From NCBI GenBank assembly GCA_963766185.1, contig CAVXZU010000014.1:113128-177127 (forward strand): 64,000 nucleotides of DNA, given 5' to 3'. Shown piece after piece: positions 31,133 through 50,300 of the stretch; position 1 is the first letter of the stretch; every line of letters begins with the position of its first letter. A program made the translations under genes and the position numbers. The stretch is from an uncultured delta proteobacterium. GTDB lineage: Bacteria > Desulfobacterota > Desulfobaccia > Desulfobaccales > 0-14-0-80-60-11. The notes under the pieces were generated by a model. It did not search any database, was not told the DNA's origin, and saw nothing but the letters and a program-made list of their open reading frames with translations.

Positions 31133-32572
31133 ATGATCGAGGTTGAAGAGAAGCTTATTGATGAGATTACCGCAACGTTCCATTATCTGCGCGCCGGGAA
31201 AGTCCCTGAACCCATCCCGATACCGGATGACCTCCCGGACAACGAGATTCGCCAGCTTCTTACCTATGTGAACCGCTTCCTGGTGGAGTTCGCCATGTTC
31301 ACCGAAGCCATGGCCCAGGTCGCCCAGGGAGAATTGGACCTCCGGCCCCTGGCAAGCCGCCTGGCCGTGACCCATTCCTTCAAGGCCCTCCAATCGAATC
31401 TCAAACACCTTACCTGGAAGACCCAGCAGATCGCTGGGGGGGATCTGGAGCAGCGGGTTGATTTCATGGGGGATTTCTCCATCGCCTTCAACACCATGAC
31501 CGAGCAGCTTAAGGAGTCCCGGGCCCAACTGGTCGACCTGAACCAGCAGCTTGAGCATCGCAATAAGTTCATCCGGGAGACCTTTGGCCGTTATACCGGC
31601 GACGACATCGTGGATGTGCTCCTCGACCTGCCCGAAGGGCTCAAGCTCGGGGGAGAGAAGCGCCAGGTTACCCTCCTGATGTCCGACCTCCGGGGGTTCA
31701 CCGCCCTGGCGGAGCGCCTTGAGGCCACCCAGGTTGTCGCCCTGCTTAACCATTACCTTTCCCGCATGATCGAGATAATCCAACGACGCGGCGGCACCAT
31801 CGATGACATCATCGGGGACGCCATCCTGGTGGTGTTTGGTGCCCCCGTGGCGACGCCGGATGCGGCCCAACGTGCGGTCTGCTGTGCCCTCGAGATGCAG
31901 AAGGTGATGCAGGAGGTAAACGAATATAATTTTCAAAAAGGTTGGCCCGAAATCGAGATGGGGATTGCTCTCCATACCGGCGAAACGGTGGTGGGCAATA
32001 TCGGCTCGGCTAAGCGGTCGAAGTACGGGGTCATAGGTCAGCCGGTCAACCTGACGGCTCGTATTGAGACCTTCACCGTTGGCGGGCAGGTGCTCGTCTC
32101 CCCTACCCTGATTGGCGCCGTTGATCGTGGACTTATCCTCGGTGATGAGGTCAAGGTCCGGGGCAAGGGCATGGAAAAGGCCCTGAGATGTCGTATGTTG
32201 CTGGGCCACGAAGACCACCCGGAGCTCTTGCTCACGGAAGAGGCGGCGAGCTTCATAACCCTTGCCGAACCCATGGCCTTCTCCTTCGTAAGTCTGGCCG
32301 GCAAACAACTTGACGACAAGATGCATCCGGGTACTTTTCTCTCCCTCTCCACCCGGCGGGCGATCATCGAGGTCGCCGACCCACTTGAGTCGTATGCCAA
32401 CATCATGCTGCGGGTGGAGGCCGAGACCGGGGACGCGGCGTCGGAGCTGTACGCCAAGGTGATGCGTCCTCTTGATGAGTCAGCCCGGCGTTACCTGATC
32501 CATTTCACCCTGGTCCCGCCTGCCGTCCAGTCGCGGTTCCAACGGCTGACAGAAGGGATCAAGGGCCCGTGA
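31133..32572 (+). CDS. class III adenylate/guanylate cyclase with HAMP-like linker and unassigned C-terminal domain
   Basis: VTLLMSDLRGFTALAE, IGDAILVVFGAP, GIALHTGETVVGNIGS..RSKYGVIGQPVNLTARIE. The preceding FNTMTEQLKESRAQL resembles HAMP. Confidence 0.88.
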   Translation: MIEVEEKLIDEITATFHYLRAGKVPEPIPIPDDLPDNEIRQLLTYVNRFLVEFAMFTEAMAQVAQGELDLRPLASRLAVTHSFKALQSNLKHLTWKTQQIAGGDLEQRVDFMGDFSIAFNTMTEQLKESRAQLVDLNQQLEHRNKFIRETFGRYTGDDIVDVLLDLPEGLKLGGEKRQVTLLMSDLRGFTALAERLEATQVVALLNHYLSRMIEIIQRRGGTIDDIIGDAILVVFGAPVATPDAAQRAVCCALEMQKVMQEVNEYNFQKGWPEIEMGIALHTGETVVGNIGSAKRSKYGVIGQPVNLTARIETFTVGGQVLVSPTLIGAVDRGLILGDEVKVRGKGMEKALRCRMLLGHEDHPELLLTEEAASFITLAEPMAFSFVSLAGKQLDDKMHPGTFLSLSTRRAIIEVADPLESYANIMLRVEAETGDAASELYAKVMRPLDESARRYLIHFTLVPPAVQSRFQRLTEGIKGP

Positions 32573-32660: not shown

Positions 32661-32758
32661 GGAAGTGCGAGGTTCACTGGTGGGGCCCCCGGACTTCAAA
32701 TCCGGTGTGCCGTCTGCTGAAGGCGGTAGGTGGGTTCGATTCCCATGCACTTCCGCCA
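32661..32758 (+). tRNA. selC: tRNA-Sec (anticodon TCA, 32696-32698), CCA encoded
   Basis: GGAAGTGC...GCACTTCC 8-bp acceptor stem, anticodon loop CTTCAAA, long variable arm (tgtgccgtctgctgaaggcggtagg), T arm GGGTTCGATTCCC, 3' GCCA. Same architecture and conserved blocks as E. coli selC (GGAAG..., GGACUUCAAAUCC, CUUCCGCCA). Confidence 0.93.
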
Positions 32759-33021
32759 ACGATTTGCGAGAATGGAGGTCAAATTTTTTGGCCTCCTTTT
32801 TCTTTGGTGAGTAGGTTGTGATGCCAATTTATATGGCCGGGGCTTATATGGACGAAGGCCACTTCACCTACAAATCTAAATCTGAATTCATGAAGGTGGC
32901 CCGGGCGGCGCTCAACCCTTTACAGGCAGCCATCTTTTGGCAAGCGGGCGGTAAACTGACCTGAGCCGATAAGCTGGTGCGTAAGTTTTTTTACCTGGCT
33001 CGGAAGCCATTGACCATCGGG

Positions 33022-33654
33022 CTAAGCGCTCAGTGGATTGAACTGGAGCATTGCTTGGAGCCGTTGGGCCCAGACCGCTGCCTGCTCAGGTTTATGGGCC
33101 TCGGGCAGACCGAGACTCAAAAGACTGGAGCGAGTCTCGTGCCACCGGCGGGCCATGATGGATTTCTGGCCTCGGGTTGCCGGTTCGGGCTCAGCCAGCC
33201 GAAGATAATGGTCGATCATTCTCTCGACGGCATTCCAGAGATGTCTTTCGAAGTAAGGTTTGAGTTCGCCCCAATCCTGGAATGGCTTTATGGTGTGTCC
33301 GTGTTCGGGACTTTCGAGCCGGTCTATAAAGTCGGCGAGACGTGGTTCTCGGTCTTGACATTCCCTGACGTAGATAAGTATTTCCCGGCGGGAATTCTCC
33401 AGGGCGGTTTCGTATTCCAGACAGGTCGGGGAACTGTAAATGCAGCCAAACAAGCCTACATAAATGGGAGCGCGGCGGACGCGATTCAAGAATGTGTCCT
33501 TCACCGTCTCGCGTTCCGGAGACCAGTCCTCGGCAAGATCGGCGGCAAGCAGCGGTAACTTCCGGATTACCTGCTCCATCCCTAAGCGTTCACGTTGAAA
33601 TTCTTTCTGTTTGCTACTGATGAACACTCGCACCACCTCAGAAATTTCAGCCAT
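33022..33654 (-). CDS. DUF4062 domain protein (TIR/flavodoxin-like fold family)
   Basis: 210 aa. VRVFISSKQKEFQRERLGMEQVI...APIYVGLFGCIYSSPTCLEYETALENSRREILIYV matches the DUF4062 signature (VFISS..-ER; Y.G..G.RYG; E...A; L.F). The C-terminal ~90 aa are unassigned. Confidence 0.75.
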   Translation of the reverse strand: MAEISEVVRVFISSKQKEFQRERLGMEQVIRKLPLLAADLAEDWSPERETVKDTFLNRVRRAPIYVGLFGCIYSSPTCLEYETALENSRREILIYVRECQDREPRLADFIDRLESPEHGHTIKPFQDWGELKPYFERHLWNAVERMIDHYLRLAEPEPATRGQKSIMARRWHETRSSLLSLGLPEAHKPEQAAVWAQRLQAMLQFNPLSA

Positions 33655-33690
33655 AGATTTTCTCCCCAGGATACATCAACAGAGAATACT

Positions 33691-36534
33691 TTAGCACGTG
33701 TCGCGCCCCTGCTGTCCAGCCCAGAGGCGCTTTAATTTGTTTAACTTTTGCGAAGGCAACCGGACCCGGTTGGTAGCGCCGTAGAGAGAATAACCGGACC
33801 AGTGGATCGGGTTCGACACATCGAAGCCGACAGCGAGTCCGTGCAAACAATCGAGTTGGGTTTGGCGAAGCGCCTCAGCGCGAGAGAGCGATACAAGCCG
33901 ATCATAATAACGCGCCAGGAACATCGGCGCAAGCCGGTCATCGACTTCCCACAGATTCGCCACAACGCTACGCACTCCTGCGGCCCGGAGAGTCTGGGGT
34001 AAACTTATGACCCAGCGCCCTGGCAAAAGAAAGTTATCCGCGGACCAGCACGACGCCAGCACCGCCTGCTCCACTCTCCGAAGATCGAGCGTATGCAATT
34101 GCCGCAACGTGAGAAATTCTTCTTGATTTCCCTGTATCAGCACGAACCCGGATTGATCAGGTGCATCTACTCGGAACCTGCCATGACAGACGATGTGGAA
34201 AAAGCGGGATTCCGGAAGCAGGCGAATGAGTGAGTCAGAAGTGGGATCAAACTCGTTGCGGGAAGCTATGCCATGGGTGCTGAAATGGTCACTCACCGCG
34301 GTCGCTTCTTCCAGGGCGACTTTGATGGGCGGGTAATCTTCCGTGCCCTTTAGAACGGCAGCAACCAAAGCTTCGCCCTTCTTTGGGGCGGAGGAATGAA
34401 CCCCGCTCATAATGTATTCTACGGAAATTGAAAAGCGCTCGACAAGATATTGTCCACCATAGGGCAAAGCAGAGAACGGCAACCCATGCAAGACATCATC
34501 CGGCATAAAGCGGATTTGCCGTATGCGGGGGGGCAGTGTGCTGAGAAAGGCGGGGAGAGTCAGGGCATAAGCAAGCGGATCAAGGATATCTGACAACATT
34601 TGGCCGGTGGCTCCCTCGAGCACTGACTCATGCCAGTGGCGCACCGCATCCCGGAGCTGAATACGGCTGAGCGCGGCGATCGCGAAGTCAATGGAAAGAG
34701 CTCGAACATGTATGACAATCACTTGATCCGGGAGAACCACAAAGCGGAACGTGGTGCGTTTCCGCCCATGGGCGACCATCCACCGGAAAACCGCAAAGCG
34801 GTTCCACAAAGGTGCCGGGCGAGCGCCAGCCACACGCGCCCCGATTTCGGACTGATAACGATCGAGATAACCCAGAAACCGAAGGAGATCGCGGGTTAAT
34901 TTCCACTTAAGGATCAGGCGACGCAGGATTCCCGAATTTTGGGCTTGTTGGCGAACCGCGGCCAGGCGCACAAATTCCCCGGCGAGAAACTCCTCTTCAA
35001 CCGTCCATTTGTTCAGCTGGTAGATGGCGCGTTCAGGGGGAGGCAGGGTCAGAGTGAGTCGGTTGAGCACGTCATCAGTCTGTGCCCGTAGGAGGGCCGC
35101 CGCCTCTTGGTGACCAGCCCGGGTCTCGCACCAGGACAGGGAACGATACACCTGCCAAAGGAGGCCGGTGGCCTGCATATCAATAAACGCATCGCGGACC
35201 CGCGAGAATCCGCTATAGGCCTTATCGATTTCGTTTTGATAATAGAGGAGGTTGGAGCGCAGGGCATCGAGCAGGGTGTGAATGAGGATTGAATCGGTTT
35301 CGCCAAACGCGGCGTTCAGTTCATCCAAATAGATTTCGGCTGTGGCCCAGTCTGAGCGGTCCAGGAGAAAATGGAACCCGAGGGTGCGATCCTCGAACGA
35401 CGCCAGATAGCTTTGACAAGCCGGGATGTCCATGGGGGAGGGCCAGCCAGAGGTCTCTGCGGCAAGGGGAATAGGCGGGCTCTCCTCGCCGCCCCACATC
35501 TGGAGAACGGACGGGCCAATGGAGATACCGTCCAGGAAAGAACGGGCCCGTCCGGAAGCAAGATATTCCAGAAGCTCCGCCCGGATTTGCAGACGTGCAT
35601 GATTGTTGGTCTCGACCGCGGTCTTGACGCGCTGAATCAACCGGGTGGCCTGCTGGGTTTGATTGAGTATTATGAGGATGCTGGCCAGATTGAGGGAAGC
35701 GTTCAATTCGGCTAATGGGAAAGATCCCTGCTGGCAGGTCTTAATTACCCGTTCGAAGCTTTCCTTAGCCAAGCCCAACTCACCCTGGAGAAGATGCAAC
35801 TTACCGAGCAACTCATCCCGCTGCACCGCAAGGGCTGGATTGGGCTGTTGGTCAAGCTGAGCCTCAAGGTTATCCAGCTCGGAATAAGCCCCCAGCAGAT
35901 CGCCGGATTCGAGGTTTGCCGTGGCGATGACTAGATGGAAGGCCGGTTTGGCTTGAAGGCTAATTTCACCTTGACCGTGCTGGAGGCCGCGCGCCGCGGC
36001 GGTTAGGGCGCAGCGATACTGACCGTTCGCGAGGTGGATGTGCGCCATTTCCAGATAAAGACGTGAAAACATGAGGGATATTTCGTCCGGAGCGCCGGTC
36101 CAGCCATGGCCCGATTCCCATTTTTTGAGGGCCGACTCCGTGAACTCGAGATCGTCAATGTTCCCGGGTGCGCCGTGGAGATTCAGCAGGATTGCGTAGG
36201 CGTCGCGAATCAATCCCTGAGCACGATAAACAGAGGCGAGTTTGAGAGCTGTGAAGTCGGCGCAATAGAGATTTGAGCTGGCCGCGTACCAAGCACGCAC
36301 GGCTTGCAGCAGATTCACAGCCGGGGTGTAAAACCCATACAGGACCGCGAGGTCGGAGAGCCGTTCCAGGGCGACGACGTCAAGGCCCGTGGCTGGACTT
36401 TGGGCGCCGACGCCCGCTTGCAGGCGGGCCACCATCAGATCGCGATAGCTCTGAAAGGCGCCTTCAAAGTCGCCACGCTGAAACTGGTCTTCGGCACGGT
36501 GAAAGGCCGTCCGCACAGCAGTAATATCCATCAC
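33691..36534 (-). CDS. TPR-repeat CHAT-domain (caspase-like) protease
   Basis: 947 aa. The N-terminal ~550 aa are TPR-like helical repeats. The C-terminal CHAT domain has catalytic His (FFHIVCHGRF) and Cys (AVLASCWSAD), then RAAGVRSVVANLWEVDD...FYD. Confidence 0.9.
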   Translation of the reverse strand: MMDITAVRTAFHRAEDQFQRGDFEGAFQSYRDLMVARLQAGVGAQSPATGLDVVALERLSDLAVLYGFYTPAVNLLQAVRAWYAASSNLYCADFTALKLASVYRAQGLIRDAYAILLNLHGAPGNIDDLEFTESALKKWESGHGWTGAPDEISLMFSRLYLEMAHIHLANGQYRCALTAAARGLQHGQGEISLQAKPAFHLVIATANLESGDLLGAYSELDNLEAQLDQQPNPALAVQRDELLGKLHLLQGELGLAKESFERVIKTCQQGSFPLAELNASLNLASILIILNQTQQATRLIQRVKTAVETNNHARLQIRAELLEYLASGRARSFLDGISIGPSVLQMWGGEESPPIPLAAETSGWPSPMDIPACQSYLASFEDRTLGFHFLLDRSDWATAEIYLDELNAAFGETDSILIHTLLDALRSNLLYYQNEIDKAYSGFSRVRDAFIDMQATGLLWQVYRSLSWCETRAGHQEAAALLRAQTDDVLNRLTLTLPPPERAIYQLNKWTVEEEFLAGEFVRLAAVRQQAQNSGILRRLILKWKLTRDLLRFLGYLDRYQSEIGARVAGARPAPLWNRFAVFRWMVAHGRKRTTFRFVVLPDQVIVIHVRALSIDFAIAALSRIQLRDAVRHWHESVLEGATGQMLSDILDPLAYALTLPAFLSTLPPRIRQIRFMPDDVLHGLPFSALPYGGQYLVERFSISVEYIMSGVHSSAPKKGEALVAAVLKGTEDYPPIKVALEEATAVSDHFSTHGIASRNEFDPTSDSLIRLLPESRFFHIVCHGRFRVDAPDQSGFVLIQGNQEEFLTLRQLHTLDLRRVEQAVLASCWSADNFLLPGRWVISLPQTLRAAGVRSVVANLWEVDDRLAPMFLARYYDRLVSLSRAEALRQTQLDCLHGLAVGFDVSNPIHWSGYSLYGATNRVRLPSQKLNKLKRLWAGQQGRDTC

Positions 36535-36552
36535 GACACCGATCAGCCTTAC

Positions 36553-39500
36553 TCAGTGCGAGGCGCGGGTTACCACGATGTAGGCTAACCGCTGGCGCCG
36601 CTTCTTCTCGTCATCTTGCCCCGCTGATGTTGGTAAAATCGCGATTACGGGCGTATAGCGGAACGATTGTTGAGCATGATATTCGTGGTTTGCCAGGCGA
36701 AGGGTAACCGTGGGCTTGGATCCGAAGGCCACAGTGGGCCGAAAATGGGCCAGGTCAACCAGGTCAATTTCATGGATGGAGACCTTTCCGGCGGAGATGG
36801 ACTGGCGTAGGCTGGCCTGCACGGAAGGATTCCAGTCGAGATTGTTGATCCCGGCGCCATCCGGGATATAGACCGGCCTATCCGGGTGGAGCAGCAAGGT
36901 TTCGAGATCAGCGGTCTTGCCTGTGGGAAGCTCTCTGGTTCGATACTCGAAAGTGATTTGTTTCCCCTTCACAACCGGCCGGAGATCCCCTGCGGGCTTA
37001 AACTGGAGGCGGTAGTTGCGCCAGTCGGAAATCGCGGCAAGGTGATGGAGATTTTCCTGGATGGGTTTGTTGCCGATGGAACCTCGGATACGCAGGTTGA
37101 CTTCATCGAAGAAGGCGTTGTACTCACGCATCGGAGTTAAATCCGCCTCTTGAAGACTGGCAATGGCTCGCTCCGGCTTGCCGGCGCTCAGTTCTGCTAA
37201 TCCCTTTCTGGCCATGAAATCCGGGTGTTTCCCATAGAAGAAAATCAAGTCGTCCATTTGACGTGAGGCCAGATCAAACTGGCCGCGGGCCAGATAGGCG
37301 TCATTTTGCTTGAGCTGTTCGCCTAAGAAGGCCTTAAATCGGACCCGGAATTTATCCGGATCAGCAGCGACCTCGCGGGCCGCCTTGAAGTAGTCGCGTT
37401 TCCCCAGGATTTGCTGCAGCCGGGCGGTATCTGAGAATCCACCGCCTCCGCCTGCTCCCAACTCCGCGAGTCGCCCGGGGTTCCCGTGCAAATCCGGGGG
37501 GAGATCCCGGTACCGGATGTAGTAAGAGCCGGTTTTGGGGTCGATATGGCCGGGTAACCGTTTACCACCGATAGTGAAATTCGTGAGGGGGACGCCTTCC
37601 GGGGGGCCGCGGGCGCCGAATTCAACGATGGGTGCTTCGGTAACTGCCGAGGCCGGCTTTATCCTGATGAAGCTTTCGCCAGGGAGGTCTGCCGGGACCT
37701 CGAACGTTTTCGTCCAGGCCACGTCGATGGAAAAAGCTTTGGGGTCCGCTTCGGCGATGCGAGCCTGGCACCCTGGGGAAATTACCTGGCTGTCTCTGGA
37801 GCCCGCCGTGAACCTGATCCAACGGCCGCTGCCGCTCAGTTCAACCGAGATACCCTTCCCAGGCACTAAGATCACTGATTTTACCGCCGGGTCGGATTGG
37901 AGTATTTGGAGGACCTTATCATCACGCGCAATGCTAAGCCGGCGGGCCGCGGTTTGAGCCCAGTCAACATCGCGACTGCGCCAGCCGATTTTGAAGCCCT
38001 GGGTACTGGGGGAGATTCGCAGTTCGCCGACCTCCGCGCCCGCGGCCCTGGTTTGGAGGACAAAGCGATGCGGGGTCCGTTCAATGACAGTTTCGAAATG
38101 AGTGTTTTTGATTTCCCCGAAAATGCCGCGTAAACGGACTTTGGGGCCGGTATGGGCGATAATCTTGGTGACATTACCCTCCACCGGCTTAAAAATGAAT
38201 TTACTCTTGTTGAGCATTTGGATCTCACCGACGCCGGACTCGGCAAAGTCAACAGCTCCCCGGCGAGCCGAGGCGGGGACCTTTTGGGTCAATGAGGCGC
38301 GGAAGGCCAGGGCTTCGCGGCGGGCCAGAGAGACACCCCCCCTCCAAATAATCAGACGGCCGGAAGGAGTATGGAGGATGGGAAGCGCTTCGGTTGAAGT
38401 GCCGGCATAGCCTTGGGGCAGGAAACTGATGGCGTCCCAGTTCCGGAACGTCAGTTCCGGATGCTTGCGGGCCCAGTCAGGGAACTGTTGCGGCTTTTCG
38501 TCAGGAACGTTTTTGAGGAAACCGAGCAGGCTGCCATTACCTTCCGTGTTGAGCCAGCCGATAAGTTGGCTCCACTTCATGATCTCGTTAAGACGTTCAT
38601 ACTCCGGTTCGTGGCGGGCGACCTCTTCAAAGTGGTCGTTCCACCAGGCGATGAATATACGGGTTACGTAGTTGGGCTCGGCTTCGGTACGGTGATCGGC
38701 GTTGGTGAGGAAATCATGGGGCACGGCGAAGACGCGGGTAGCGTTGCGTGCAAATGATATCGAGCCTTTATGTTGGCCTATCTGAAAACCGCTGTCGAGG
38801 GAACCGAGCCATAATCTGGTTTCGCCCAGGTCACGAAATTCCTGGTTATAGTTGACTGGGACAATTATGTCTGGATTGAATGGGAAGCCATCGATCGACC
38901 TGGGGCAGCATTGGTGAAGTCCAGTGCCCACAGCTTCATGAGCAGATCGGTATAGAACAGGACCATGCCGGTTTCGGTGCCTTGGAGTCGACCGTCATAC
39001 CGGGCTGCCTGAATCAGTCCCTTCCAGAAAATATCGCGAACGAGGGGGGAGGATTTATCTCCTGGGATACCGCTGGCCTGGAAGCCATGTAATAACGCTT
39101 GACTTAAGGCCCTTTCATCCTTCGCAGCGATGGCCTCCCGAGCCTTTTTAAAAGCGTTCTCGTCCAACAATATGGAAAGAATAAACTGAGTTTCCAACTC
39201 AATGCACAGCTCTTTGCCGAGGCCTCGGGCTTGGCAGCCTTTAATTAAGGCCTCGATTTTGTCGCCATGGATAAAAGCTTGGAGGGCCTCCTTACCGAAA
39301 ATTTTTTCGGCGTTTTTGCGGACTAACAACAATTCGTTCAGATAGGCGCCCATCTTCTCGAAGTCCATCCGAGGGTCGAGAGAACCCGCTGCCGGTCCGC
39401 TTGCCGGAGGAATCGTTTTCTGATTTCCAGACGGTGGCCACATCCTCGACCCGGATGTGGCGATACGGGCGGCTCAGAAGTTTCCGCCCTCCCAGCACAA

Positions 39501-40209
39501 GAGCGGAACCATCCTTCCGGGCATAGGTGATATCATCGATCTGGCTCATGAAGGCACGGAAGTCAGCGAGTGAGGTGATGGTCTGTTCCCGGTAGCCGTA
39601 GGTTGCGGTGAAGAGGGCCTTGCCTTCAAGGGATTGGCGGCGGGTTACCCGGGCAAACTGCTCGTCAGGGATGATTTGGTATTCGAAGATATGCACAACC
39701 GCGGGGATACTGCCCAAATTCTTGCGCTCTCTATCAGCAATGTGGGCCAGTTGATCGGGGCGCGCCGGGGTTCCCGCCGGAATGAGGGCAATGACCTCAC
39801 CTGTCCCGACGAGGGCGGAACGGGTTTCCCCTGATTCGATAGTGGCAACGCGCCGCAGGTGGTCATTGCGCGCCACCGGTATATCGTAGAGCACCTGGTT
39901 GAGGCTATCCAGAGGCAGGTTGAGCGAAGAGATAATCGAGATCAGCAGCCAATCCCGGTATTGATCAAGGAGATCGCGACGGGAAATCTTGCCGTTTTTG
40001 GTGCGGGAGTTTTCCTCTCGCCAGCCGGCCTGAAGCTCGTCGAGGTTGGCATCAAAGTCGATGGCGCGGACCTGGTCAACCGGAAAACCAACGAATTGAA
40101 GCGTCGCAGCCACTGGTTTGGCGATCGGGCTTAATAACTTTACCATGACAACGACGGCTACCAGGATGACCAAGGTGCTGAGCGTAGCGACGATCCTTTT
40201 GAGGTTCAT
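36553..40209 (-). pseudogene. ~1,200-aa N-terminally TM-anchored protein of unknown function; three overlapping ORFs joined by two frame changes
   Basis: ORFs 39292..40209 (TM helix IVATLSTLVILVAVVVMV), 38865..39443 and 36553..38931 run frame 0 -> 2 -> 0. The tails after the overlaps look like out-of-frame junk (R/S/G-rich). Plausible junctions are ...[28 protein letters not shown] (~39380) and ...[12 protein letters not shown]/(S)[20 protein letters not shown] (~38900, at cgatcgat). The C-terminal part has TPR-like helices. Confidence 0.6.
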
Positions 40210-40224
40210 CTCTGCTTCTCCTTA

Positions 40225-42171
40225 CTAGTCTGGTTGGCGAACCGCGACGAGTTTCCGGAACCGCTTAAAATGAAGCCGGGCGGCATCGGACTTAGGGTCC
40301 TGGGCGAAGGACCAACGTACCAACGCTTCGCTATAGAGCGCTTCAACCTCTTGCTGGCGTGGATCAGGCGCCAACACGCCATTACTCAAAAACTGTTCTG
40401 ATTTCTCAATGATGGTAATATGATCGCCCTGAGCGGAGGCCTGGATAATAGCTTGATAAGCGGCATCGCGCGCGTTGCGGTGGCTGGGCTCTCGAATGCC
40501 AAGGACTGCAGCGCAGCAGATCAGGACCAGGGCAAGCGCAAGTTCGGCTTTGACCCACTTCGCCTGGCGGCTGAACAGCCAGAGCATGAACGGTTCCAAG
40601 CTGAACCTCTTCTTATCAGTTTCCGGGACGATCATGGGCAGGGAGGCCTGGCTGGCTTCAGACTGAGGTTCCGCCTGGGGCGCCGGAGAGAGTTCTGCTT
40701 TGGTTGCATCCCTGAGCAGCCGGTTGGCCAGAAAGGAGGTAACGGTGTTGGCGTCGAGTGCGGCAAGTGCGGGATCTTCGGCGGCGATCTGCATCCAAAG
40801 AGTGCTGATCTGCGACTCGGATTCTGGTTTCTGTTCGGCAACTTTTCCCAAGGCGGTGAAAAGGTTGAGGGGGCGCGGATCTTCCACCGTGGGCTTGTCG
40901 AAGCCCATTTCTGTCCAGATCGTGAACGCCAGTGCTTTTTGTCTGTCGTGCTGCAGTTGGGCGGAAGCTTCCGATTCCGCAAACTCGTTTATGAGGGAAA
41001 AGCCAATGGCTGCCTCCTGGTGCATCCGCACTCCCTCCGGGGTGAGAGTGGTGTTGGGGGCAGCTTTGATTTCTTCGAGTACCTTTGATACGTCCTCTTG
41101 GAGATCGGTCATCAGCTTGATGATTTGTTCACGTGAACTCCAAAACTTTTCAGAGCCGGGATTTAATACAACCGCGGTTTCTACTTCAAGCAGGGCTGTT
41201 GACAGCTTTCCGGCATTCGCCAACTTCACGGCGCAAAGGTGATGCAAATCGCCGAGTAGATCGAGAACAAACAGGCTGTACGGAGCATAAGAGCGCAAGG
41301 TATCAAGACGCAGAATTCCCTCGTGAATCGTCTCTGCATCTCTGGTGGACGCCGTTCCAGAGTCATCGCCGCTGAGGCTTTCGAGAGTCGCAGAGAATTG
41401 AAGGTCTGCTGCGAGATTAACGTACTCCTCCTCATCTGGAAAGCGCTCGACCAAGTCTAATTTTGCGCGCCAATAGGCGTTTTCCCATTGTTTGGCATCC
41501 CGAAGAGCAGCAATTTCCCGTTTGGTATTGGTGACGAAAGCCGAATCGTCGTGAAAACAAAGCTCAGCGCAGTCACGCTTAAGCTTATAGATATAGTTGA
41601 GGTGAACGAAACAGCGATGCGATGGCTCTGGTGATGTGCCCAACGACCGAAGCCCATTGTAGAAAGCCCAATGTACATTTAAAAAGAGTTCCTGGACAAA
41701 GTGGCGGCGGATCTGGTCGAGAGAAACGGCACCAGACAGGCCAAGCCGATCGGATACTTCGGTTATGAGCTGCTGCCAATCCGCACCTGCTTTGACGACT
41801 TTACCAAGTTGCAAGTGAGCTTCTTGCCAGAGGAAATCGGCGCGGACGTATCTGCCTTGGCGTTCGGCGTCGATGGCCAACTGCCGGAGGCGAAGGAGAC
41901 GACCGATACGTTCTGGGAAATTGAGTTTTAGGCCAGCGATAAAACGAGAGCGGCTCAAGGTCTCGCCGGCCGTGACAATCTCATGCGCAACCTTTTGGGC
42001 AGCAGATGGTTCGCTCTGGCCGACGGCGTCTGTTCCAGGCTGGGGCTCGAAAATCCAATCAAATGCCGGAGTTGAATCTGCATTTGCCATTTCATTCGCC
42101 TCCGTTCTCCCCTGACGGGCCACAGTGGGGTTGGGAATTGTGTTGAAAAAGTTTCTGTTCCATAAAGACAC
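40225..42171 (-). CDS. 648-aa all-helical protein with a single TM helix near the C-terminus, unknown function
   Basis: Intact ORF 15 nt upstream of the giant gene. TM segment WVKAELALALVLICCAAVLGI at about residues 545-570. No P-loop or known catalytic motif seen. Confidence 0.7.
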   Translation of the reverse strand: MSLWNRNFFNTIPNPTVARQGRTEANEMANADSTPAFDWIFEPQPGTDAVGQSEPSAAQKVAHEIVTAGETLSRSRFIAGLKLNFPERIGRLLRLRQLAIDAERQGRYVRADFLWQEAHLQLGKVVKAGADWQQLITEVSDRLGLSGAVSLDQIRRHFVQELFLNVHWAFYNGLRSLGTSPEPSHRCFVHLNYIYKLKRDCAELCFHDDSAFVTNTKREIAALRDAKQWENAYWRAKLDLVERFPDEEEYVNLAADLQFSATLESLSGDDSGTASTRDAETIHEGILRLDTLRSYAPYSLFVLDLLGDLHHLCAVKLANAGKLSTALLEVETAVVLNPGSEKFWSSREQIIKLMTDLQEDVSKVLEEIKAAPNTTLTPEGVRMHQEAAIGFSLINEFAESEASAQLQHDRQKALAFTIWTEMGFDKPTVEDPRPLNLFTALGKVAEQKPESESQISTLWMQIAAEDPALAALDANTVTSFLANRLLRDATKAELSPAPQAEPQSEASQASLPMIVPETDKKRFSLEPFMLWLFSRQAKWVKAELALALVLICCAAVLGIREPSHRNARDAAYQAIIQASAQGDHITIIEKSEQFLSNGVLAPDPRQQEVEALYSEALVRWSFAQDPKSDAARLHFKRFRKLVAVRQPD

Positions 42172-42212
42172 CTCCTCATCGAAGCAGGATTGAGGAGTTG
42201 GAGGAGCGATGC

Positions 42213-42983
42213 CTACACTTTGGCGTTCTTGGCAATTTCAATGTTGGTCAGCCAACCCATAACCGGTTCATCAGGTTTACCGTGTTCCGTAACGAAAACA
42301 TCTTGACAATCCTTTACACCCTCCATGATGGCTTTTGCGTCTGCAAGATTTTGATCTAGAGCCACAAAGGCCAATGTCTTGCTAACGTAATCCTTCATCC
42401 CATTGAAGTTCAGGAAATCTTCCAGAGTCGTGGTGTTCAATTGGAATCCCTGCCCCTTAGCAAGGCTTTCTTCGGCGAGGAACTTGTAGAGCATGCTCTG
42501 ATGGATCACGTACCGGGTGACACCCTTGTCGTCCAGGATAGGAATGCGGGTGACCACGCCCACCAGAAAGTCTTTCAAAATCTCGAGTTTTATATCCTTT
42601 TCGCTCTGGCCGGCGGACAACCGTACGGCCTTTATAGAGCTTACCGGCAACATGGCTTTCCGGACCGGGATGCTGCGAAGCTTCTCATCCGGGGTTAACT
42701 CTTTGACTGTATTAATAAAGGACTGACTTGCTGCCTGAAAGTTATCTTTAGAAAAGTAGTAGGCCAGTATCGTCCCGACCCAAGTTCCGATAAGCGGTAA
42801 GATGGCGGTAAAGACCATTTGGGTTGTCTCTCGGAGGTGCGAGGTGCTGGTGAGGGCAACGGCAATAATGACCATTGCTGCCAGAAGCATCAAACCTATG
42901 GTGGATCCGTAAACAATCCGCCTGGCGATGGTGGCACGGTCCTGTCGTTCGGCGACTTCAACCGCTTTATCTCCGTTTGACAT
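42213..42983 (-). CDS. 2-TM membrane protein with cytoplasmic CBS-domain pair
   Basis: TM helices IVYGSTIGLMLLAAMVIIAVAL and MVFTAILPLIGTWVGTILAYYF. CBS-like units IPVRKAMLPVSSIKAV...VTRIPILDDKG and VSKTLAFVALDQNLADAKAIM...DVFVTEHGKPDEPVMGWLTNIEI. Confidence 0.75.
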   Translation of the reverse strand: MSNGDKAVEVAERQDRATIARRIVYGSTIGLMLLAAMVIIAVALTSTSHLRETTQMVFTAILPLIGTWVGTILAYYFSKDNFQAASQSFINTVKELTPDEKLRSIPVRKAMLPVSSIKAVRLSAGQSEKDIKLEILKDFLVGVVTRIPILDDKGVTRYVIHQSMLYKFLAEESLAKGQGFQLNTTTLEDFLNFNGMKDYVSKTLAFVALDQNLADAKAIMEGVKDCQDVFVTEHGKPDEPVMGWLTNIEIAKNAKV

Positions 42984-43052
42984 ACGTATTCTCCTTGTAA
43001 TTAATTATCTTTATGTATCTGAATGAATGGACGGGCCATATCCAGTCAGATC

Positions 43053-43265
43053 TTAAATCCTTAGCCTTTTAGAGTTTGGATATTTCCCATCAATGATATG
43101 CTGAACGCATTTCAAGACCTCACCCTGGGGGGATATTGATCCGGGTAAGACAGGGTTTTGATAACCAAGTTCTTTGATTTTTTTGTGATAAACTGGTTCA
43201 CAAGGAAGACAAAAAGAAAGAAAAGTTTGAGGTGGGGGAAGCGAGGAGGAGGCAGTCATGCTCAT
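43053..43265 (-). CDS. small hypothetical protein with CxxC (possible degenerate glutaredoxin-like fold)
   Basis: 70-aa ORF. First reading frame downstream of the predicted promoter. FLSFCLPCEPVYHKKIKELGY...QHIIDGKY loosely resembles NrdH/Grx. The RBS is poor. Confidence 0.3.
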   Translation of the reverse strand: MSMTASSSLPPPQTFLSFCLPCEPVYHKKIKELGYQNPVLPGSISPQGEVLKCVQHIIDGKYPNSKRLRI

Positions 43266-43383
43266 TACCTCGATAAAAATAAAAGCCGGGCCCCTCTTTC
43301 GGAAACCCGACTTTTTACGTCAGCATAGTGATGCCCCCTGCTGGGGATTGAATGGCAGTATTTTATCTACCGCATTTTTTAAA

Positions 43384-43412
43384 ATTTAACCATTAACCTA
43401 TAAATTTGTCAA
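43384..43412 (-). promoter_or_regulatory. candidate sigma-70 promoter of the island operon
   Basis: Minus strand reads TTGACA (43412-43407) - 17 nt - TTAAAT (43389-43384). It sits in a short AT-rich tract ~120 nt upstream of the first island ORF. Confidence 0.5.
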
Positions 43413-43438
43413 CAATTTATAAGACTATTTAAGAAACT

Positions 43439-43831
43439 TTGCATGGTCCAGCAGTTTGGGCCGGGACCCCTTGCTTTCTCCATTTTTGGCAGAATAGACA
43501 CGTGGCTGAAGGTGCTCTTGAGAAGTTGGGGATGAACTTGAAGCCAGCCAAGACCAAGGCCGAGGTTCAACGGGTGCAGTGCCTGTGGTTGCGGGCTTCT
43601 CTGAGGCTTTCTGCGGGCCAGGTGGCTACCCGCTATAGCTTTGCTTCCCAAGCTCTCAATTCCGGAACTCCTCAGCATTTAATCGGGGCTTTCTTGGGGC
43701 ATAAAGATCCCCAATCTACCGAGCGCTACGCCCATCTGGAAACCGGGCCCCTGGTCCAGGGCTGGAACCGCCACGAGCAGGTGCGGCACCAACTTGGCAC
43801 CAAAGCGCAAATTGGCGGCGCTAACCTATGA
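43439..43831 (+). pseudogene. tyrosine recombinase (integrase) remnant, C-terminal box only
   Basis: ...ATRYSFASQALNSGTPQHLIGAFLGHKDPQSTERYAHL retains the LGH....T..Y.H catalytic tail, but the HxxR box is degenerate. The ~250 N-terminal residues of a normal integrase are missing. Ends 30 nt before the distal direct repeat. Confidence 0.65.
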
Positions 43832-43860
43832 GAATTTTATCTTCAACTGTAACTATTCTT

Positions 43861-43889
43861 TGGGTTCGATTGCCATGCACTTCCGCCAA
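43861..43889 (+). repeat. distal direct repeat (att-like) = copy of the tRNA-Sec 3' end
   Basis: tgggttcgattGccatgcacttccgccaa versus tRNA positions 32731-32759. The single mismatch is at 43872. Confidence 0.85.
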
Positions 43890-44524
43890 TCTTTTCCAGG
43901 AGGCGCCATAGCCGCCCCTGGCCCGCCTGACCGGAACCATCTTGCGACTAACTGTTTGACAACGGGGAAATATTTTATAAAATTTAATAAGAAACCAGGC
44001 TAGGGGGCCTGCAAGCCTTTCCATGAGGGGAACGCTTTCCGGTCGTTCCCTTTATAGTTTTCAGGCAACGCTGAAGCTGACCTTGAGCCCGAATCTTTGG
44101 AAGTTACAGTTCCCTGCGGGTATGCGGCGAGGTTACCTGGTGCAGAGAACCCAAGGGCTACGGTTTTATTTCCCGGAACGGGCGGCCCGAGGTCTTCGTC
44201 CACCACCGTAAAATTTCGGGCGAGGGCTTTCGCACCCGGGATGAGGGCCAGAAAGTCGAATTCGGAATGGCGGCAGGGACAAAGGGTCCCTCATGACGAA
44301 GCTTTAGCGTAGCGGAGCCTTAAGGCGGTGGCGGCTGACTATTGGCGGCCACCCCGAGGCCGGAATACCACGATCTCAGCGGTTCAGGCGCGGGGCAAAC
44401 CGCAGCAACAGTTTGACCCGACGGCGTGGCGGCCGCCCCTGAAAGGAGTCGCCGCCTTAGTAACCATCAAGCAACTGGCGCAGCAGGCGTGACATCTGTT
44501 GCCACCAGACCACTAGGAGAAGTT

Positions 44525-45022
44525 ATGAGCAAAGTTAAAAATGGCGATTTTGTCCAATTGCATTACACCGGCACCCTGGAAGACGGCTCGGTCTTTGACA
44601 GCAGCGACGGCCGCCCCCCCCTGGAGTTTCAGGTGGGCGGCGGGGGAATTATCCAGGGCTTCAATGATTCGGTTATCGATATGGCCCTCAATGAAGAGAA
44701 AAAAGTGGTTCTCACCCCGGACCAGGCTTATGGCGAACCCCGGGAGGATCTCAAGCGGGATTTTCCCGCCTCGATGTTGGAAGGGAATCCGGTTGAGGTG
44801 GGCCAGCAGCTGCGGTTCTCCAGCCCCCACGGCCCTGTATCCGGGACGGTCTTGAGCATCGAACCCGAGAAATTTGTGGTGGATTTCAACCATCCGTTGG
44901 CCGGGCAGACGCTCTCGTTCGATATCAAGATCGTGGGCATCAGCGACACCCCCAGCCAGCCCCAGGAAGGGTGCTCCTGTACGCCTTCCTCCTGCTCCTC
45001 CGGCTGCGACTCCTGCGGCTAA
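44525..45022 (+). CDS. slyD: FKBP-type peptidyl-prolyl isomerase, SlyD-like, with Cys-rich tail
   Basis: Start MSKVKNGDFVQLHYTGTLEDGSVFDSS after GGAGAAG. IIQGFNDSVIDMALNEEK, IF-insert region, NHPLAGQTLSFDIKIVGI, tail CSCTPSSCSSGCDSCG. The ORF track start at 44426 is not supported. Confidence 0.85.
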   Translation: MSKVKNGDFVQLHYTGTLEDGSVFDSSDGRPPLEFQVGGGGIIQGFNDSVIDMALNEEKKVVLTPDQAYGEPREDLKRDFPASMLEGNPVEVGQQLRFSSPHGPVSGTVLSIEPEKFVVDFNHPLAGQTLSFDIKIVGISDTPSQPQEGCSCTPSSCSSGCDSCG

Positions 45023-46065: not shown

Positions 46066-47310
46066 AAACTCTCTCCCTTGCCGCCCTCAGGATCACCCAA
46101 ACAACCAAGGCTGCCATGACTTCTGCCGCCCTGCCTCCAGTGATTGTACCAAGTTTTAAGTGAGGATGGGATTCAATTCAAGCTCTAGAGATGGTTTGCC
46201 AACGGAAACGCGAAAATCGGCGCTACGAAAGTTTCTCAATCTTGGCACGATCAGCGCTTATCACCCCTGCCTTAAAAATTGCCGATATGCTCTGGATGGC
46301 GAAACCTTTCCGGACCATCGTGATGAGCGCATAAAAAGCTTGCCCGCTACCCTGCCTTCGTACCGACCGCGTCCTGCTTGGCAGCTTTCAGCACAACTTT
46401 CTCCGGCTCACCTAACTCCTTGAGGGCCTCTCACCCCAGGCACTTCGCCGGCCTCGCCCCAAAAAGCCTCGCGCGGTGGTTCGGTGGTCACGTTGGCCAT
46501 ATTGCCCACGTAAAATTTCGTATTCATATCTTCTCGATGCTGCAAAGCTATACCCGCCAAAAAGCAGGGCGCACAGCAGTCAGGTAAAAAAATCGGCCGG
46601 GGAGACTGGGCAACCCGTCCGATCATTGTCCAGGACTTGTGGCCCGGCTTTCATGCTGACCTGATAAACTTTTTCTATTCTACAAGAAAATTAATCAATG
46701 CCAGACTAATAAAATTAACATTGGACCTGCTCGTAAAATTAAAGAGTTGAAGTCATAATTGGCATAATGGAAGAATGGAATGATTGCAGCAGATATTCTT
46801 GAGCTTGTGAAAATAATAAACAAGATCAAAAAAATCATTAAATCATAGATAACTTAAAGTATTTGCCATGTAATAAATATATTCTCATAGCGGTTGGTTT
46901 CTCATTGGACTCTTTTTTATTAATGACAAAACTATAATTTTATGTCAAAGTTAAGATTAGCATAAAATTAGGGGAAATGGAGTTTGCCTGGTTGATTCAT
47001 GGGTGACTCCGAGCGTCAGCCTAAGGTAAGGCCGTTTGACGACTGCCACTCTATCCAGCCAGTCTATCTCATTGCCGCGGCTCAGGCGCCAAGACCTGCC
47101 CCTTTCACTCCACTGGACAATCACCTATAAAAAGAAGATAATTCAAAAGGTTGTGGCAATACTCCCCTCAGGAGATCTCTCGAGGCCGGTGGACTTGCGG
47201 CACGTAGTCTGAGGGATTCATAGCAGCCGCCTTGCACCCCAATTTAATCGTCTTACCTCGGATTTCGGTTGAGCTGGCCGAGTAGCTCAGGTCAAAAGGA
47301 GACCTTAAGC

Positions 47311-50300
47311 ATGGTGTTGAGCAGCGAGAGCCCTCGTGAGCCCTTGCTTCGGCTGAGGTCTTACCTTCCGGGAGGGGACTTGGGGCGGAAGTATGCCGGC
47401 GACGACCTGCCGTTGCGATCGGAGTTGTTCAGCGCCGAGCAGATGGAGCAGCATGGCAAGATCCTGGCGGGCTTGCACCAGCTGAGCCCGGAACGTCCCC
47501 GGGACCGGCTGCTGACACGGCTGGCAGAGAATGAAGACCTCCTCATTGGGGTCCGCGGCCTGTTGACGGAGGCGGTCAAGGCCAATCGCCGAATGACGCC
47601 GGCCGGGGAATGGCTGCTCGACAACTTTTATCTGATCGAAGAACAGATTCGCACCGCCAAGAGGCATTTGCCCAAAGGTTACAGCCGGGAACTCCCTCGC
47701 CTGCTGAATGGTCCGTCGGCCGGGCTGCCCCGGGTGTATGACCTGGCGCTGGAGACGATCTCACACGGCGATGGACGGGTGGACCCGGAAAGTCTCAGCA
47801 GTTTCGTTGCCGCCTACCAGACCGTCATACCCCTGAAGTTGGGGGAATTGTGGGCCATCCCCATCATGCTGCGCCTGGCTCTGATCGAGAACCTGCGGCG
47901 CGTGGCCGCCCGGATTGCCGCCGACCGGACCGACCAAAACCATGCCGATTACTGGGCGGACCAGATGACGGAGATCGCCGAGACCGACCCCAAGAGCCTG
48001 ATCCTGGTGATCGCCGACATGGCGCGGTCGAACCCGCCGATGGTGAGCTCGTTCGTGGCGGAACTGACGCGCCGGTTGCAGGGGCAGGGCCCCGCCCTGG
48101 CCTTGCCCCTCACCTGGATCGAGCAGCGACTTGCCGAAAGCGGGTGGACGATCAAGAAGTTGGTACAGGCAGAGAACCAACAACAAGCCGCGGATCAGGT
48201 CTCCATGAGCAATAGTATCGGCAGCCTCCGTTTCCTGGGGGCGATGGACTGGCGCTCCTTCGTCGAGACGCTGAGCGTGGTCGAGCAGACCCTGCGTACG
48301 GATCCTCACGGCGTCTATGGCACGATGAATTTTGCCACCCGTGACCGCTACCGACATGTCGTGGAGAAAATCGCCAAGACCAGCCCGCACTCCGAAAGCG
48401 AGATCGCGCTCCAGGCGATCCAATTGGCGCACGAGGGCGCGGCCAGGAACGGCGACGACCGCACGGCCCATGTCGGCTTTTATCTGATCGATGCGGGATT
48501 AACGCAGCTCGAGGCGGCCGTGGCCAGGCGCCGCTCCTTCTTGGAGACGGTGTGCAGTGTGACCTGCCGGTTCCCTTTGCTGCTGTATGGGGGTCCGATC
48601 ACGCTGCTTTCGGTAATCATTGCCGGCGGCTTCCTGGCGCAGGCCCATGCCGGGGGGGTATCCGGTTGGCCGCTGGCGCTGATCGCCATCCTCTCGCTTC
48701 TAGGCGCCAGTCATCTGGCAATCGCCCTGGTGAACTGGCTGGCGACGTTGCTGGTGACGCCGCACCCACTGCCGCGCCTGGACTTTTCCGCCGGAATTCC
48801 CGTGGACTCGAGGACCCTGGCGGTGGTGCCGACCATGCTCACGAGCCCCCAGAATATCACGGCTCTGATCGAGGCGCTTGAAGTCCGGTTCCTGGCAAAC
48901 CGGGACGAAAACCTGCACTTCGGTCTGCTGACTGATTTTCGGGATGCGGACGCAGAAACCCTGCCGGAAGACGAGTCGCTGCTGAGGCTGGCCCGGCAGG
49001 GCATCGAAGCGTTGAACAAAAAGTACCGGAACGCCAAAGGCGATATTTTTTTCCTGTTCCATCGCCCTCGCCGCTGGAATCCCCGGGAGCGGATTTGGAT
49101 GGGTTACGAGCGCAAGCGGGGCAAGCTCGCGGAACTGAATTCCTTGTTGCGCGGGGGCTCCAGGGAGTGTTTCTCGCTCATCGTCGGGGCGACTGCAGCC
49201 TTATCGGGCGTGAAGTACGTGATCACCCTGGATACCGACACGCAACTGCCCCGGGACTCGGCCTGGCAGCTGGTGGGAGCCATGGCGCACCCCTTGAACC
49301 GGGCGCACTTACGACGCGGACCAGCAGCTGGTGCTGCAAGGGCTACGGCATCCTGCAGCCCCGCGTGGCCGTGAGCCTGCCCGGCACGAACCGGTCGCGT
49401 TATGCGCAACTCTGGGGGAGTGATCCGGGCATCGATCCGTATACCCAGGCCGTTTCCGATGTTTACCAGGATCTGTTCCAGGAAGGCTCGTTCATCGGCA
49501 AGGGCATCTACGAGGTCGATGCGTTCGAGCAGGCGCTCCACGGGCGCTTCCCCGAAAACCGGATTCTCAGCCACGATCTTCTGGAAGGGTGTTACGCCCG
49601 GGCCGGGTTGTTGAGCGATGTGCAGCTCTACGAGGAATACCCCTCGCGCTATAGCGCCGACGTAAGCCGCCGGTACCGTTGGATCCGCGGGGATTGGCTT
49701 ATTGCGCGGTGGCTGCTGCCGGGGGTTCCCGGCCCTGGCCCACACCTTCAGAAGAATCCGCTCTCGGGTCTATCCCGATGGAAGATTTTCGACAACCTGC
49801 GCCGCAGTCTCGTGGCCCCGGCGTTGACGCTCCTGTTGCTCCTGGGCTGGACGGTCCTGCCATCAGCCTGGTTTTGGACCTTGTCGGTGATCGGGATCAT
49901 CCTGATTCCTTCTTTGATGAGCTCTCTTCTGGATATGTTTCGGAAGCCGGGCGATGTGCTTCTGGGCCAGCACCTCACTGGCATAGGGCGCTCGACCGTC
50001 CGGCACCTGGCCCAGGCCGCCTTTACGCTGGTGTGTCTCCCCTATGAGGCATTTTTCAGTCTGGATGCGATCATCCGCACGAGCGTCCGGCTGCTGATTA
50101 CCCACAAGCGGCTTCTTGAATGGAATCCGTCGGGCGATTCCGATCGCCCCGGCCGCGGGGATCTGGTCGGCTCCTATCAAACGATGTGGATCGGCCCCTT
50201 TGTCTCTGTGGCCGCGGTAATCTACCTCGCGTGTGCGAGGCCAGCCGTGTTATTGACGGCTGGGCCCATACTGGGCCTCTGGTTGGCTTCGCCGGCTATC

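Follow-up and report, generated by a model that had tools for sequence, protein, structure and literature searches.

Described TPR-CHAT proteases and the present locus

Proteases that join TPR-like repeats to a CHAT domain are understood in three settings, namely separase with securin, the type III-E CRISPR Craspase, and DdvA of Myxococcus xanthus. In a stretch of 64,000 nucleotides of contig CAVXZU010000014.1 from an uncultured delta proteobacterium (this whole stretch is called the window below), a gene for a TPR-CHAT cysteine protease, gene C, lies in an operon with genes A and B for two large proteins that lack domain annotation and with gene D for a short DUF4062 protein. Gene C was found to be a component of a strictly conserved A-B-C module, and this family adds a fourth setting, in which the protease is tied to two such large proteins, one of them without a structural relative in the PDB. 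The fourth setting is widespread, with 308 sequence clusters and at least eight phyla, and includes culturable strains of Pseudomonas, Bradyrhizobium and Calothrix.

Csx29, the protease of the Craspase, has a TPR array at its N-terminus, a CHAT domain bearing the His-Cys dyad at its C-terminus and no NTPase, and it resembles the gene C protein in all of these features. A separate partner controls the activity of Csx29, and Csx30, its substrate, is encoded alongside; a parallel can be drawn to genes A, B and C. In contrast to the Craspase locus, Pfam, NCBIfam and a repeat scan of the window revealed no Cas7-11/gRAMP, Csx30, Csx31 or RpoE and no CRISPR-like repeat array, and a Craspase was ruled out by this lack of a Cas gene and an array. 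Sequence similarity to Csx29 is undetectable, and the partners here are two proteins with predicted membrane segments. Separase, which is controlled by securin, likewise has a large helical, TPR-like N-terminal region before its caspase-like domain and is bound by a pseudosubstrate partner; by analogy, a securin-like role for A is conceivable. Unlike the gene C protein, separase is eukaryotic and much larger, carries a pseudo-protease domain before the active one, and shows no sequence similarity to it.

DdvA has the TPR-CHAT architecture too, passes signals through the cytoplasmic membrane and has a defence island under its control (PMC11506125). In DdvA, the periplasmic TPR-CHAT part, whose His-Cys site is incomplete, forms one polypeptide with a transmembrane helix and a zinc anti-sigma domain, and an extracytoplasmic function (ECF) sigma factor serves as the partner (PMC11506125). 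The gene C protein differs in having a complete dyad and neither a zf-HC2 domain nor an N-terminal hydrophobic segment; the putative membrane parts are separate proteins, and no sigma factor gene, ECF or other, was found in the island that carries the operon.

Type IV Thoeris and related protease-effector modules link a caspase-like protease to TIR-type or other latent death effectors that can be released by site-specific proteolysis, and such proteolytic unleashing is an established theme (PMC12642450). These modules use TIR signalling or STAND/Avs sensors, whereas none of the seven proteins of the present island matched a Thoeris model in PADLOC. Gene D alone can be compared with the NIR systems Swarozyc, Evangelion, Vulcan, Vesta and NIR-Avs2, with which it shares the DUF4062 domain and a C-terminal auxiliary region; the conserved Glu in its motif T..EY may correspond to their catalytic Glu. 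DUF4062 is a TIR-like NADase, renamed NIR, and serves as a catalytic-Glu-dependent effector of several anti-phage systems (bioRxiv 10.64898/2026.05.01.722283, 10.64898/2026.09.04.749371, 10.64898/2026.06.25.731849). The described NIR systems are self-contained, paired with a phosphatase or fused to STAND proteins, and no linkage to a CHAT operon is reported in these three preprints. In the literature searched, no report was found that links CHAT with DUF4062 or describes the trio of A, B and a CHAT protein.

The CHAT protease and its catalytic dyad

The product of gene C matched the Pfam CHAT profile (PF12770) with 166.2 bits against a cut-off of 24 (E=1.5e-48), over residues 656-919 and profile positions 17-288 of 289. 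Translation from the GTG start gives 947 residues, while an ATG one codon later would give 946. The motif FFHIVCHG begins at residue 778 and AVLASCWS at residue 824, which places the candidate dyad at His784 (CHG; codon 34183-34185) and Cys829 (SCWS; codon 34048-34050). His784, Gly785 and Cys829 were invariant across an alignment of 33 full-length members of the CHAT family and in the CHAT genes of related genome loci (43/43), and an eight-sequence alignment placed His784 and Cys829 in the same invariant columns as the His and Cys of seven generic TPR-CHAT proteins. The canonical position of both residues, which a preliminary description from the letters alone had proposed, is thus borne out by the CHAT alignment, and a degenerate pseudo-protease was ruled out at the sequence level because the dyad is invariant in the family. 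The motif CWSADNFxLPGRW forms a family-specific and largely invariant loop after Cys829, and residues 831-839 of this loop, right after the catalytic Cys, are flexible in the structural model.

The reading frame of gene C is unbroken on the minus strand, as had been noted earlier, while the gene directly upstream is split into three open reading frames by two frameshifts. Contigs derived from short reads of four soil-metagenome runs cover most of the CHAT gene and differ from it by substitutions with zero indels; gene D is likewise without an indel in independent short-read contigs. Neither the CHAT protein nor the longer members of its family contain an NTPase, NACHT, death-like or other sensor domain, in agreement with the preliminary description. 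Pfam, NCBIfam and PADLOC detected no NTPase, NACHT or death-like domain in the CHAT protein or in any other gene of the island, and the Walker A motif is absent from all island proteins, so that an NTPase hidden among the neighbours was also ruled out. The CHAT protein is taken to be cytoplasmic, because it has no N-terminal hydrophobic segment and because its most hydrophobic stretch of 19 residues (605-623) is modelled as beta-strands.

The family alignment was the basis of an AlphaFold2 model, which reached a predicted local distance difference test score (pLDDT) of 85.6 and a predicted template modelling score (pTM) of 0.83. In this model, helical hairpins (residues 4-330), a disordered linker (334-362) and a second helical array (376-570) are followed by a beta-sheet and then by the CHAT domain, which extends to about residue 943. 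Pfam TPR models match the CHAT protein weakly and match its homologues, and in the PDB the family profile picks up TPR proteins, among them LGN/Pins and Rap phosphatases; on these models and profiles, the earlier label of TPR-like for the region before the CHAT domain seems fair. With the single protein as query, no PDB sequence was matched. The comparison of folds that the preliminary description had called for returned, as the best Foldseek matches, Csx29 (8eey_B, E 2e-14), human separase (9hn5_A, 5e-14) and DdvA (8rw5, 8e-13), all with a probability of 1.0, at TM-scores of 0.3-0.46 that are modest because the compared proteins are multi-domain.

Word-indexed searches with either the single protein or the family alignment returned only the protein itself and generic CHAT proteins, which suggested an orphan. 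This was overturned by an exhaustive HMMER search, in which 39,134 CHAT-level matches were found, with 308 clusters at E<=1e-30. Most of the matches listed at this threshold span residues ~5-925 with 30-47% identity and come from proteins of 900-1000 residues. Since these near-full-length matches cover the N-terminal 640 residues as well, that region is conserved and specific to the family and no generic TPR stretch. It is very probable that gene C encodes an active protease with obligate partners.

The conserved A-B-C module

A genome scan with the single CHAT protein as query returned nothing, an exact look-up of this protein yielded no contig, and the related loci were retrieved with an alignment of B instead. 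By this route 78 genome loci were fetched, and their open reading frames were scored with custom hidden Markov models for A, B, the N-domain of the CHAT family, the CHAT domain and D. The counts below refer to the 49 non-redundant genome loci with a full-length B. For the reciprocal scan, metagenome contigs centred on the CHAT gene were used when they left enough upstream room, at least 1.5 kb for B and at least 5.5 kb for A.

Directly downstream of B, on the same strand, the family-specific CHAT gene was found in 49/49 genome loci; conversely, the metagenome loci centred on the CHAT gene all have B upstream (30/30). A stands upstream of B in 38/49 genome loci and 16/21 metagenome loci, and all of the five B-homologue loci that were looked up individually carry an A-like gene, B and the CHAT gene in this order. 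In the window, the operon genes are all on the minus strand and are separated by gaps of 41, 15, 18 and 36 nucleotides. The preliminary description had held that activation must come from partner proteins; the two-way co-occurrence with B makes this far more plausible and stops short of proving it. The hosts include Acidobacteriota, Cyanobacteria (Calothrix PCC 7103, Tolypothrix, Nostoc), Verrucomicrobiota, Planctomycetota, Gemmatimonadota and Bacteroidota, as well as Pseudomonas sp. C2B4 and Bradyrhizobium ganzhouense. The distribution over at least eight phyla is patchy, and the module is common in filamentous cyanobacteria and Acidobacteriota. Neither A nor B is recognised by PADLOC (2023), NCBIfam or Pfam; no island protein had a significant NCBIfam match, and of the seven only the CHAT protein had a match in PADLOC.

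Some of the loci carry further genes. In three of the 49 (L002, L003 and L009) a ThiF-type cluster recurs, and a complete ubiquitin-like set of genes for a YukD-like ubiquitin-like protein, a ThiF E1, a JAB protein, an FHA protein, two Prok-RING proteins and a UQ_con E2 was seen directly upstream of A on the same strand (L003 105-6482, with a gap to A of 63 nucleotides; L004; L002 2045-8091). Many module loci contain extra, unrelated TPR-CHAT and Peptidase_C14/C25 genes and pairs of ECF sigma and zf-HC2 anti-sigma genes, and look like protease-rich islands (L002 16396-23555; L005 4890-8012 and 16577-18439; L009; L018; L025; L030).

Gene B, a large partner probably outside the cytoplasmic membrane

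In the window, gene B is represented by three open reading frames, 39292-40209 (305 residues), 38865-39443 (192 residues) and 36553-38931 (792 residues), in frames 0, 1 and 0. The motifs of the B family run through all three, and therefore these are parts of one gene of ~1219 codons that is broken by two frameshifts, near 39377 and 38901. The 792-residue piece alone has more than 100 homologues, typically of 1170-1250 residues and without a Pfam domain. At the two sites, soil-run contigs of 95-99+% identity carry two additional nucleotides, GA, after 39377 (run X1) and one additional nucleotide after 38901 (X1, X2 and X4). Because the frame is restored in these independent short-read contigs, and because the window differs from the same runs by single-base indels outside the island as well, both frameshifts are probably assembly errors rather than biology.

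B of the window begins with a hydrophobic anchor (residues 6-23, 40141-40194), and a single N-terminal hydrophobic or transmembrane helix after a short N-terminus bearing Lys or Arg was found in 45/48 B proteins. In a B-like paralogue from a Bryobacteraceae genome (L076), the N-terminus resembles a signal peptide and the module carries an inserted PG_binding_1 domain. On account of these two features, the bulk of B lies probably outside the cytoplasmic membrane, in the periplasm. A confident model of the B homologue P0028 (pLDDT 86.3, pTM 0.82) gave no significant match in a fold search of the PDB (best E 0.07, probability 0.11), and the sequence profile of B gave a weak TPR match only, at positions ~890-1000. 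A fold search of BFVD returned one marginal match (E 4e-4, probability 0.99), to part of a Tupanvirus 'J domain-containing protein'. No other structural match of B fell below 0.001; the TM-score of this one, 0.16-0.20 over 637 aligned columns, is no basis for reliance, and the match may reflect the TPR-like part only. The fold of B, as modelled, may be new.

The N-terminal module of ~600 residues also occurs apart from the rest of B. It was found as the only part of B in a further 33 loci; a different CHAT protein follows in 12 of them, chiefly from Actinobacteria, and no CHAT gene follows in the other 21, from Geobacter relatives, Elusimicrobia, Bacteroidota and others. As a stand-alone module it is found in proteins of ~800-1600 residues in Geobacter relatives, Elusimicrobia, Nitrospirae and Bacteroidota (L051, L054, L055, L059, L066, L067, L070, L072, L076 and others), and in the elusimicrobial locus L066 the gene adjoins those for MutL and SMC.

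Gene A, a putative single-pass membrane partner

Proteins of the A family are ~620 residues long, and the true start of gene A in the window is probably ~27 codons downstream of the annotated one. Its product has 27-32% identity to the products of the genes upstream of B in L001, L003 and L006. One transmembrane helix is predicted at residues 542-559 (40495-40548), followed by a conserved C-terminal tail of ~90 residues, and the helix lies ~95 residues from the C-terminus in 25/27 A members. Short variants of A in Pyrinomonadaceae and some cyanobacteria keep just the helix and the tail, which therefore constitute the conserved core of A. No Pfam, NCBIfam or PADLOC match was obtained for A, and its profile found only weak TPR matches among PDB sequences, with Csx30 chains among them. 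The N-terminal part of ~510 residues is assumed to be cytoplasmic (N-in/C-out), because no signal peptide precedes it.

Gene D and the variable fourth gene

The product of gene D matched Pfam DUF4062 with 29.3 bits (cut-off 24.7) over residues 9-73 and is 43% identical to the product of the gene after the CHAT gene in L003. The motifs FISSKQ.E..ER and T..E80Y are invariant in seven D proteins linked to the module, and on this conservation, judged among these seven homologues, Glu80 (codon 33415-33417) is the candidate catalytic residue; in tested NIR enzymes the catalytic Glu was found at E98, E103, E108 and E1008 (bioRxiv 10.64898/2026.05.01.722283, 10.64898/2026.09.04.749371).

The fourth gene was surveyed by clustering the flanking open reading frames of the 49 loci, which gave at least 13 recurrent flank clusters, and by Pfam scans. 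D lies downstream of the CHAT gene in 7/49 genome loci and in 6/33 metagenome loci with at least 0.9 kb of downstream sequence, and all DUF4062-type modules with a named source are acidobacterial. A neighbouring gene for a caspase-like Peptidase_C14 protein of ~700-760 residues was found in 21/49 loci, mostly within 500 nucleotides and on the same strand, and a TIR_2+DUF4384 protein of 385 residues is encoded directly upstream in 6/49. The locus sets with DUF4062, TIR and C14 genes do not overlap among the 49. Conflict systems typically show this pattern, in which the core stays the same and the NADase or protease partners are exchanged. D was placed outside the core mechanism because of its low frequency.

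The tRNA-Sec island

The operon is cargo of an island integrated at a tRNA-Sec gene and is apparently present in part of the population only (Table 1). The island comprises 11.1 kb (32759-43889) between direct repeats that are 11,130 nucleotides apart; in 100 shuffles, no match to such a repeat occurred (0/100). Its guanine plus cytosine (GC) content is 54.7%, against 60-61% in the flanks. A contig of run X2 leaves the tRNA gene at 32759 and continues into TCTTTTCCAGGAGGCGC, which is the sequence directly right of 43889; the island-free junction is spanned by a 51-nucleotide unitig of this run, and the depth of the flanks is about twice that of the island. These observations are suggestive of an empty-site allele in run X2, where the spanning contigs are short.

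The integrase remnant aligns with positions 131-169 of 172 of the Pfam Phage_integrase profile, and a tblastn search with the intact integrase of L003 gave a single alignment under E=0.1, covering residues 268-312 of 319. Because only this C-terminal stub survives, the island is probably immobile now. In L003, the same four genes adjoin a ParE/Phd pair and an intact integrase. The 256-residue protein encoded by the first gene of the operon has only sub-threshold Pfam matches, and was placed outside the conserved module because it belongs to none of the 13 recurrent flank clusters listed.

Several other contigs leave the tRNA-Sec gene at the same base with different continuations, and integration may recur at this site. 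A protein with HAMP and adenylate/guanylate cyclase domains is encoded on the plus strand at 31133-32572, just ahead of the tRNA-Sec gene.

Table 1. Positions of the island features and operon genes in the window
Feature	Position	Strand	Basis or remark
tRNA-Sec gene, anticodon TCA, integration target	32661..32758	+	ARAGORN; Rfam RF01852, 74.7 bits
Left direct repeat	32731-32759		29 nt; tRNA-Sec 3' end
Gene D, DUF4062 (NIR, TIR-like NADase) protein, 210 aa	33022..33654	-	Pfam DUF4062
Gene C, TPR-CHAT cysteine protease, 947 aa	33691..36534	-	Open reading frame; Pfam CHAT; invariant H/G/C columns; AlphaFold2 model
Gene B, obligate partner, ~1219 aa if read through	36553..40209	-	Split into three open reading frames
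Gene A, helical protein, 648 aa	40225..42171	-	Homologous to gene upstream of B in other loci
256-aa protein, two N-terminal hydrophobic helices, weak CBS-like C-terminus	42213..42983	-	First gene of island operon
Tyrosine-recombinase (integrase) remnant	43439..43831	+	Last ~45 catalytic-domain residues, about 43631-43753
Right direct repeat	43861..43889	+	28/29 identical to tRNA-Sec 3' end

Proposed mechanism and competing explanations

Based on these findings, a model is proposed in which protease C would be held in check until A, B or both change state. B, anchored in the membrane with its bulk outside, would sense something that happens at the envelope, for example adsorption or injection by a phage, damage to the cell wall or the attack of a competitor. 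A would act as a single-pass adaptor whose transmembrane helix and C-terminal tail contact B, while its cytoplasmic part might dock on the TPR arm or might itself be the substrate or pseudosubstrate of the protease, by analogy to Csx30 for Csx29 and securin for separase. Once switched on by the signal, the protease would cut A, a co-encoded latent effector, or both; the latent effector would be the DUF4062/NIR NADase in the window and a TIR or caspase-like C14 protein in other genomes. The outcome would be loss of NAD+ or proteolysis and growth arrest of the abortive-infection type.

That A, B and C form an envelope-linked, protease-based conflict module, with a cytoplasmic CHAT protease and carried as island cargo, has about an even chance of being correct. 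For the module, a conflict or defence role as such is slightly favoured; a relay across the envelope with cleavage of A or D is put forward more tentatively; and it is doubtful that the module represents a new class of trans-envelope immune sensor, in which a periplasmic B of novel fold would signal through A to a separase-like protease and on to interchangeable death effectors, with no NTPase or nucleic-acid sensor. DUF4062, TIR and C14 are effector domains of known conflict systems and count in favour of the conflict module, as the conserved position of the transmembrane helix and the short helix-and-tail variants do for A as adaptor, and as the direct repeats, the integrase stub, the low GC content and the empty site do for the context of a mobile island. 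The invariant dyad and the fold of the CHAT protein, the size of its family, the two-way co-occurrence of B and C, the short gaps of the operon and the precedent for proteolytic release of effectors also speak for the conflict module.

Several points weigh against it. Every step of the scheme draws on sequences and models, from which the topology of A and B, the division of sensing and cleavage among the proteins and the defence role are inferred, and the control of a cytoplasmic protease by a periplasmic B is itself a proposal. Around the transmembrane helix of A, the count of Lys and Arg is 2.1 before and 3.2 after, which disfavours the assumed N-in/C-out topology. PADLOC has no match to A, B or D, and relatives of B were found neither on plasmids nor in IMG/VR viral contigs. 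D is present in just 13 of the 82 loci in which its position could be examined. The C14 genes, which in cyanobacteria come with DUF1822 and ECF sigma genes, may, by comparison with the systems described in PMC8195603, belong to separate adjacent systems of the EACC2-caspase type. Finally, the ancestral role of the module need not be defence, because B-like modules stand alone beside housekeeping genes or without a CHAT gene.

A competing view is that A, B and C are a regulatory or developmental signalling device, in which an envelope or cell-wall cue makes the protease process a regulator, as in DdvA, in HetF of cyanobacterial differentiation or in the one-substrate control of the separase type, the NADase, TIR and caspase genes being unrelated neighbours. 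The B-like modules beside housekeeping genes and the peptidoglycan-binding insert in L076 speak for such a device, as do the ECF sigma and zf-HC2 anti-sigma genes near the module in 4/49 loci, an FHA-GAF sigma-54 activator gene near it in four loci, the abundance of the module in filamentous cyanobacteria and Acidobacteriota, the regulators DdvA and separase among the closest solved folds of the CHAT protein, and the missing PADLOC match. Nonetheless, it seems rather unlikely: core regulation would be unusual on a tRNA island whose presence appears to vary within the population, the distribution over the phyla is patchy, toxin-antitoxin and integrase genes adjoin the module in L003, and the fourth gene swaps among three classic death-effector domains without overlap, mostly within 500 nucleotides and on the same strand. 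The distance of 36 nucleotides between the caspase-like protease gene and the TIR-like gene downstream of it would also fit a device like type IV Thoeris, in which D senses, makes a nucleotide derived from nicotinamide adenine dinucleotide (NAD) and thereby switches on the CHAT protease as effector. TIR-to-caspase-like signalling is cited as established (Rousset et al. 2025), and according to an NIR preprint, NIR domains might produce signalling molecules. Such a device is improbable, since D is rare while A and B are near-universal, since the place of D is taken in 21 loci by a caspase-like protease, which cannot make a nucleotide signal, since no Thoeris model was matched in PADLOC, and since neither Pfam nor the model makes a nucleotide-binding domain evident in the CHAT protein.

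The loss of all but the last ~45 residues of the integrase, together with the two frameshifts of B in the window, raises the question of whether the intact CHAT gene is a functionless leftover in a decaying, immobilised island with a broken partner gene. This is distinctly improbable, and a pseudogenised operon was ruled out, as the frameshifts are missing from the short-read contigs: the one at 38901 is restored in X1, X2 and X4 and that at 39377 in X1, the single-base indels against the same runs outside the island point to assembly error, and none of the CHAT, A and D genes is broken or lacks a family-invariant residue. A single-gene CHAT defence of the Borvo type, to which the neighbours would be irrelevant, was suggested by a PADLOC match to BovA (E=0.0013, 15.8 bits), which is weak, near the noise level and confined to residues 743-894, within the CHAT domain. 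With B as an obligate partner in both directions of the survey, a stand-alone gene of this kind was ruled out and is hardly credible.

Should A-B-C turn out to be a defence system, a sensor outside the cytoplasm would be coupled through it to a caspase-like protease inside, and CHAT proteases would be connected with the newly recognised DUF4062/NIR NADases. If the trans-envelope relay holds, protease-based immunity would be triggered from outside the cytoplasm. The module also shows clearly how effectors can be swapped while the protease core stays constant, and it poses a concrete, testable question of substrate, namely whether A, D or both are cleaved.

Other observations in the window

To the right of the island, the window departs from the soil runs at three places: base 44392 is absent in X2-X4, X1 and X4 have 10 additional nucleotides after 44293, and X1 has one more after 44458. 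For the FKBP/SlyD-like gene at 44426-45022, the annotated GTG start and the N-terminus may be wrong. Two overlapping open reading frames on the plus strand, 47269-49374 (701 residues, no Pfam match) and 49095-56042 (2315 residues), may be a single gene of more than 2900 codons split by an indel. A tandem duplication of 183 nucleotides was found at 17625-17985 (two copies, 92% matches), and degenerate repeats with a period of 21 nucleotides occupy 9419-9995, inside the open reading frame at 9389-10294.

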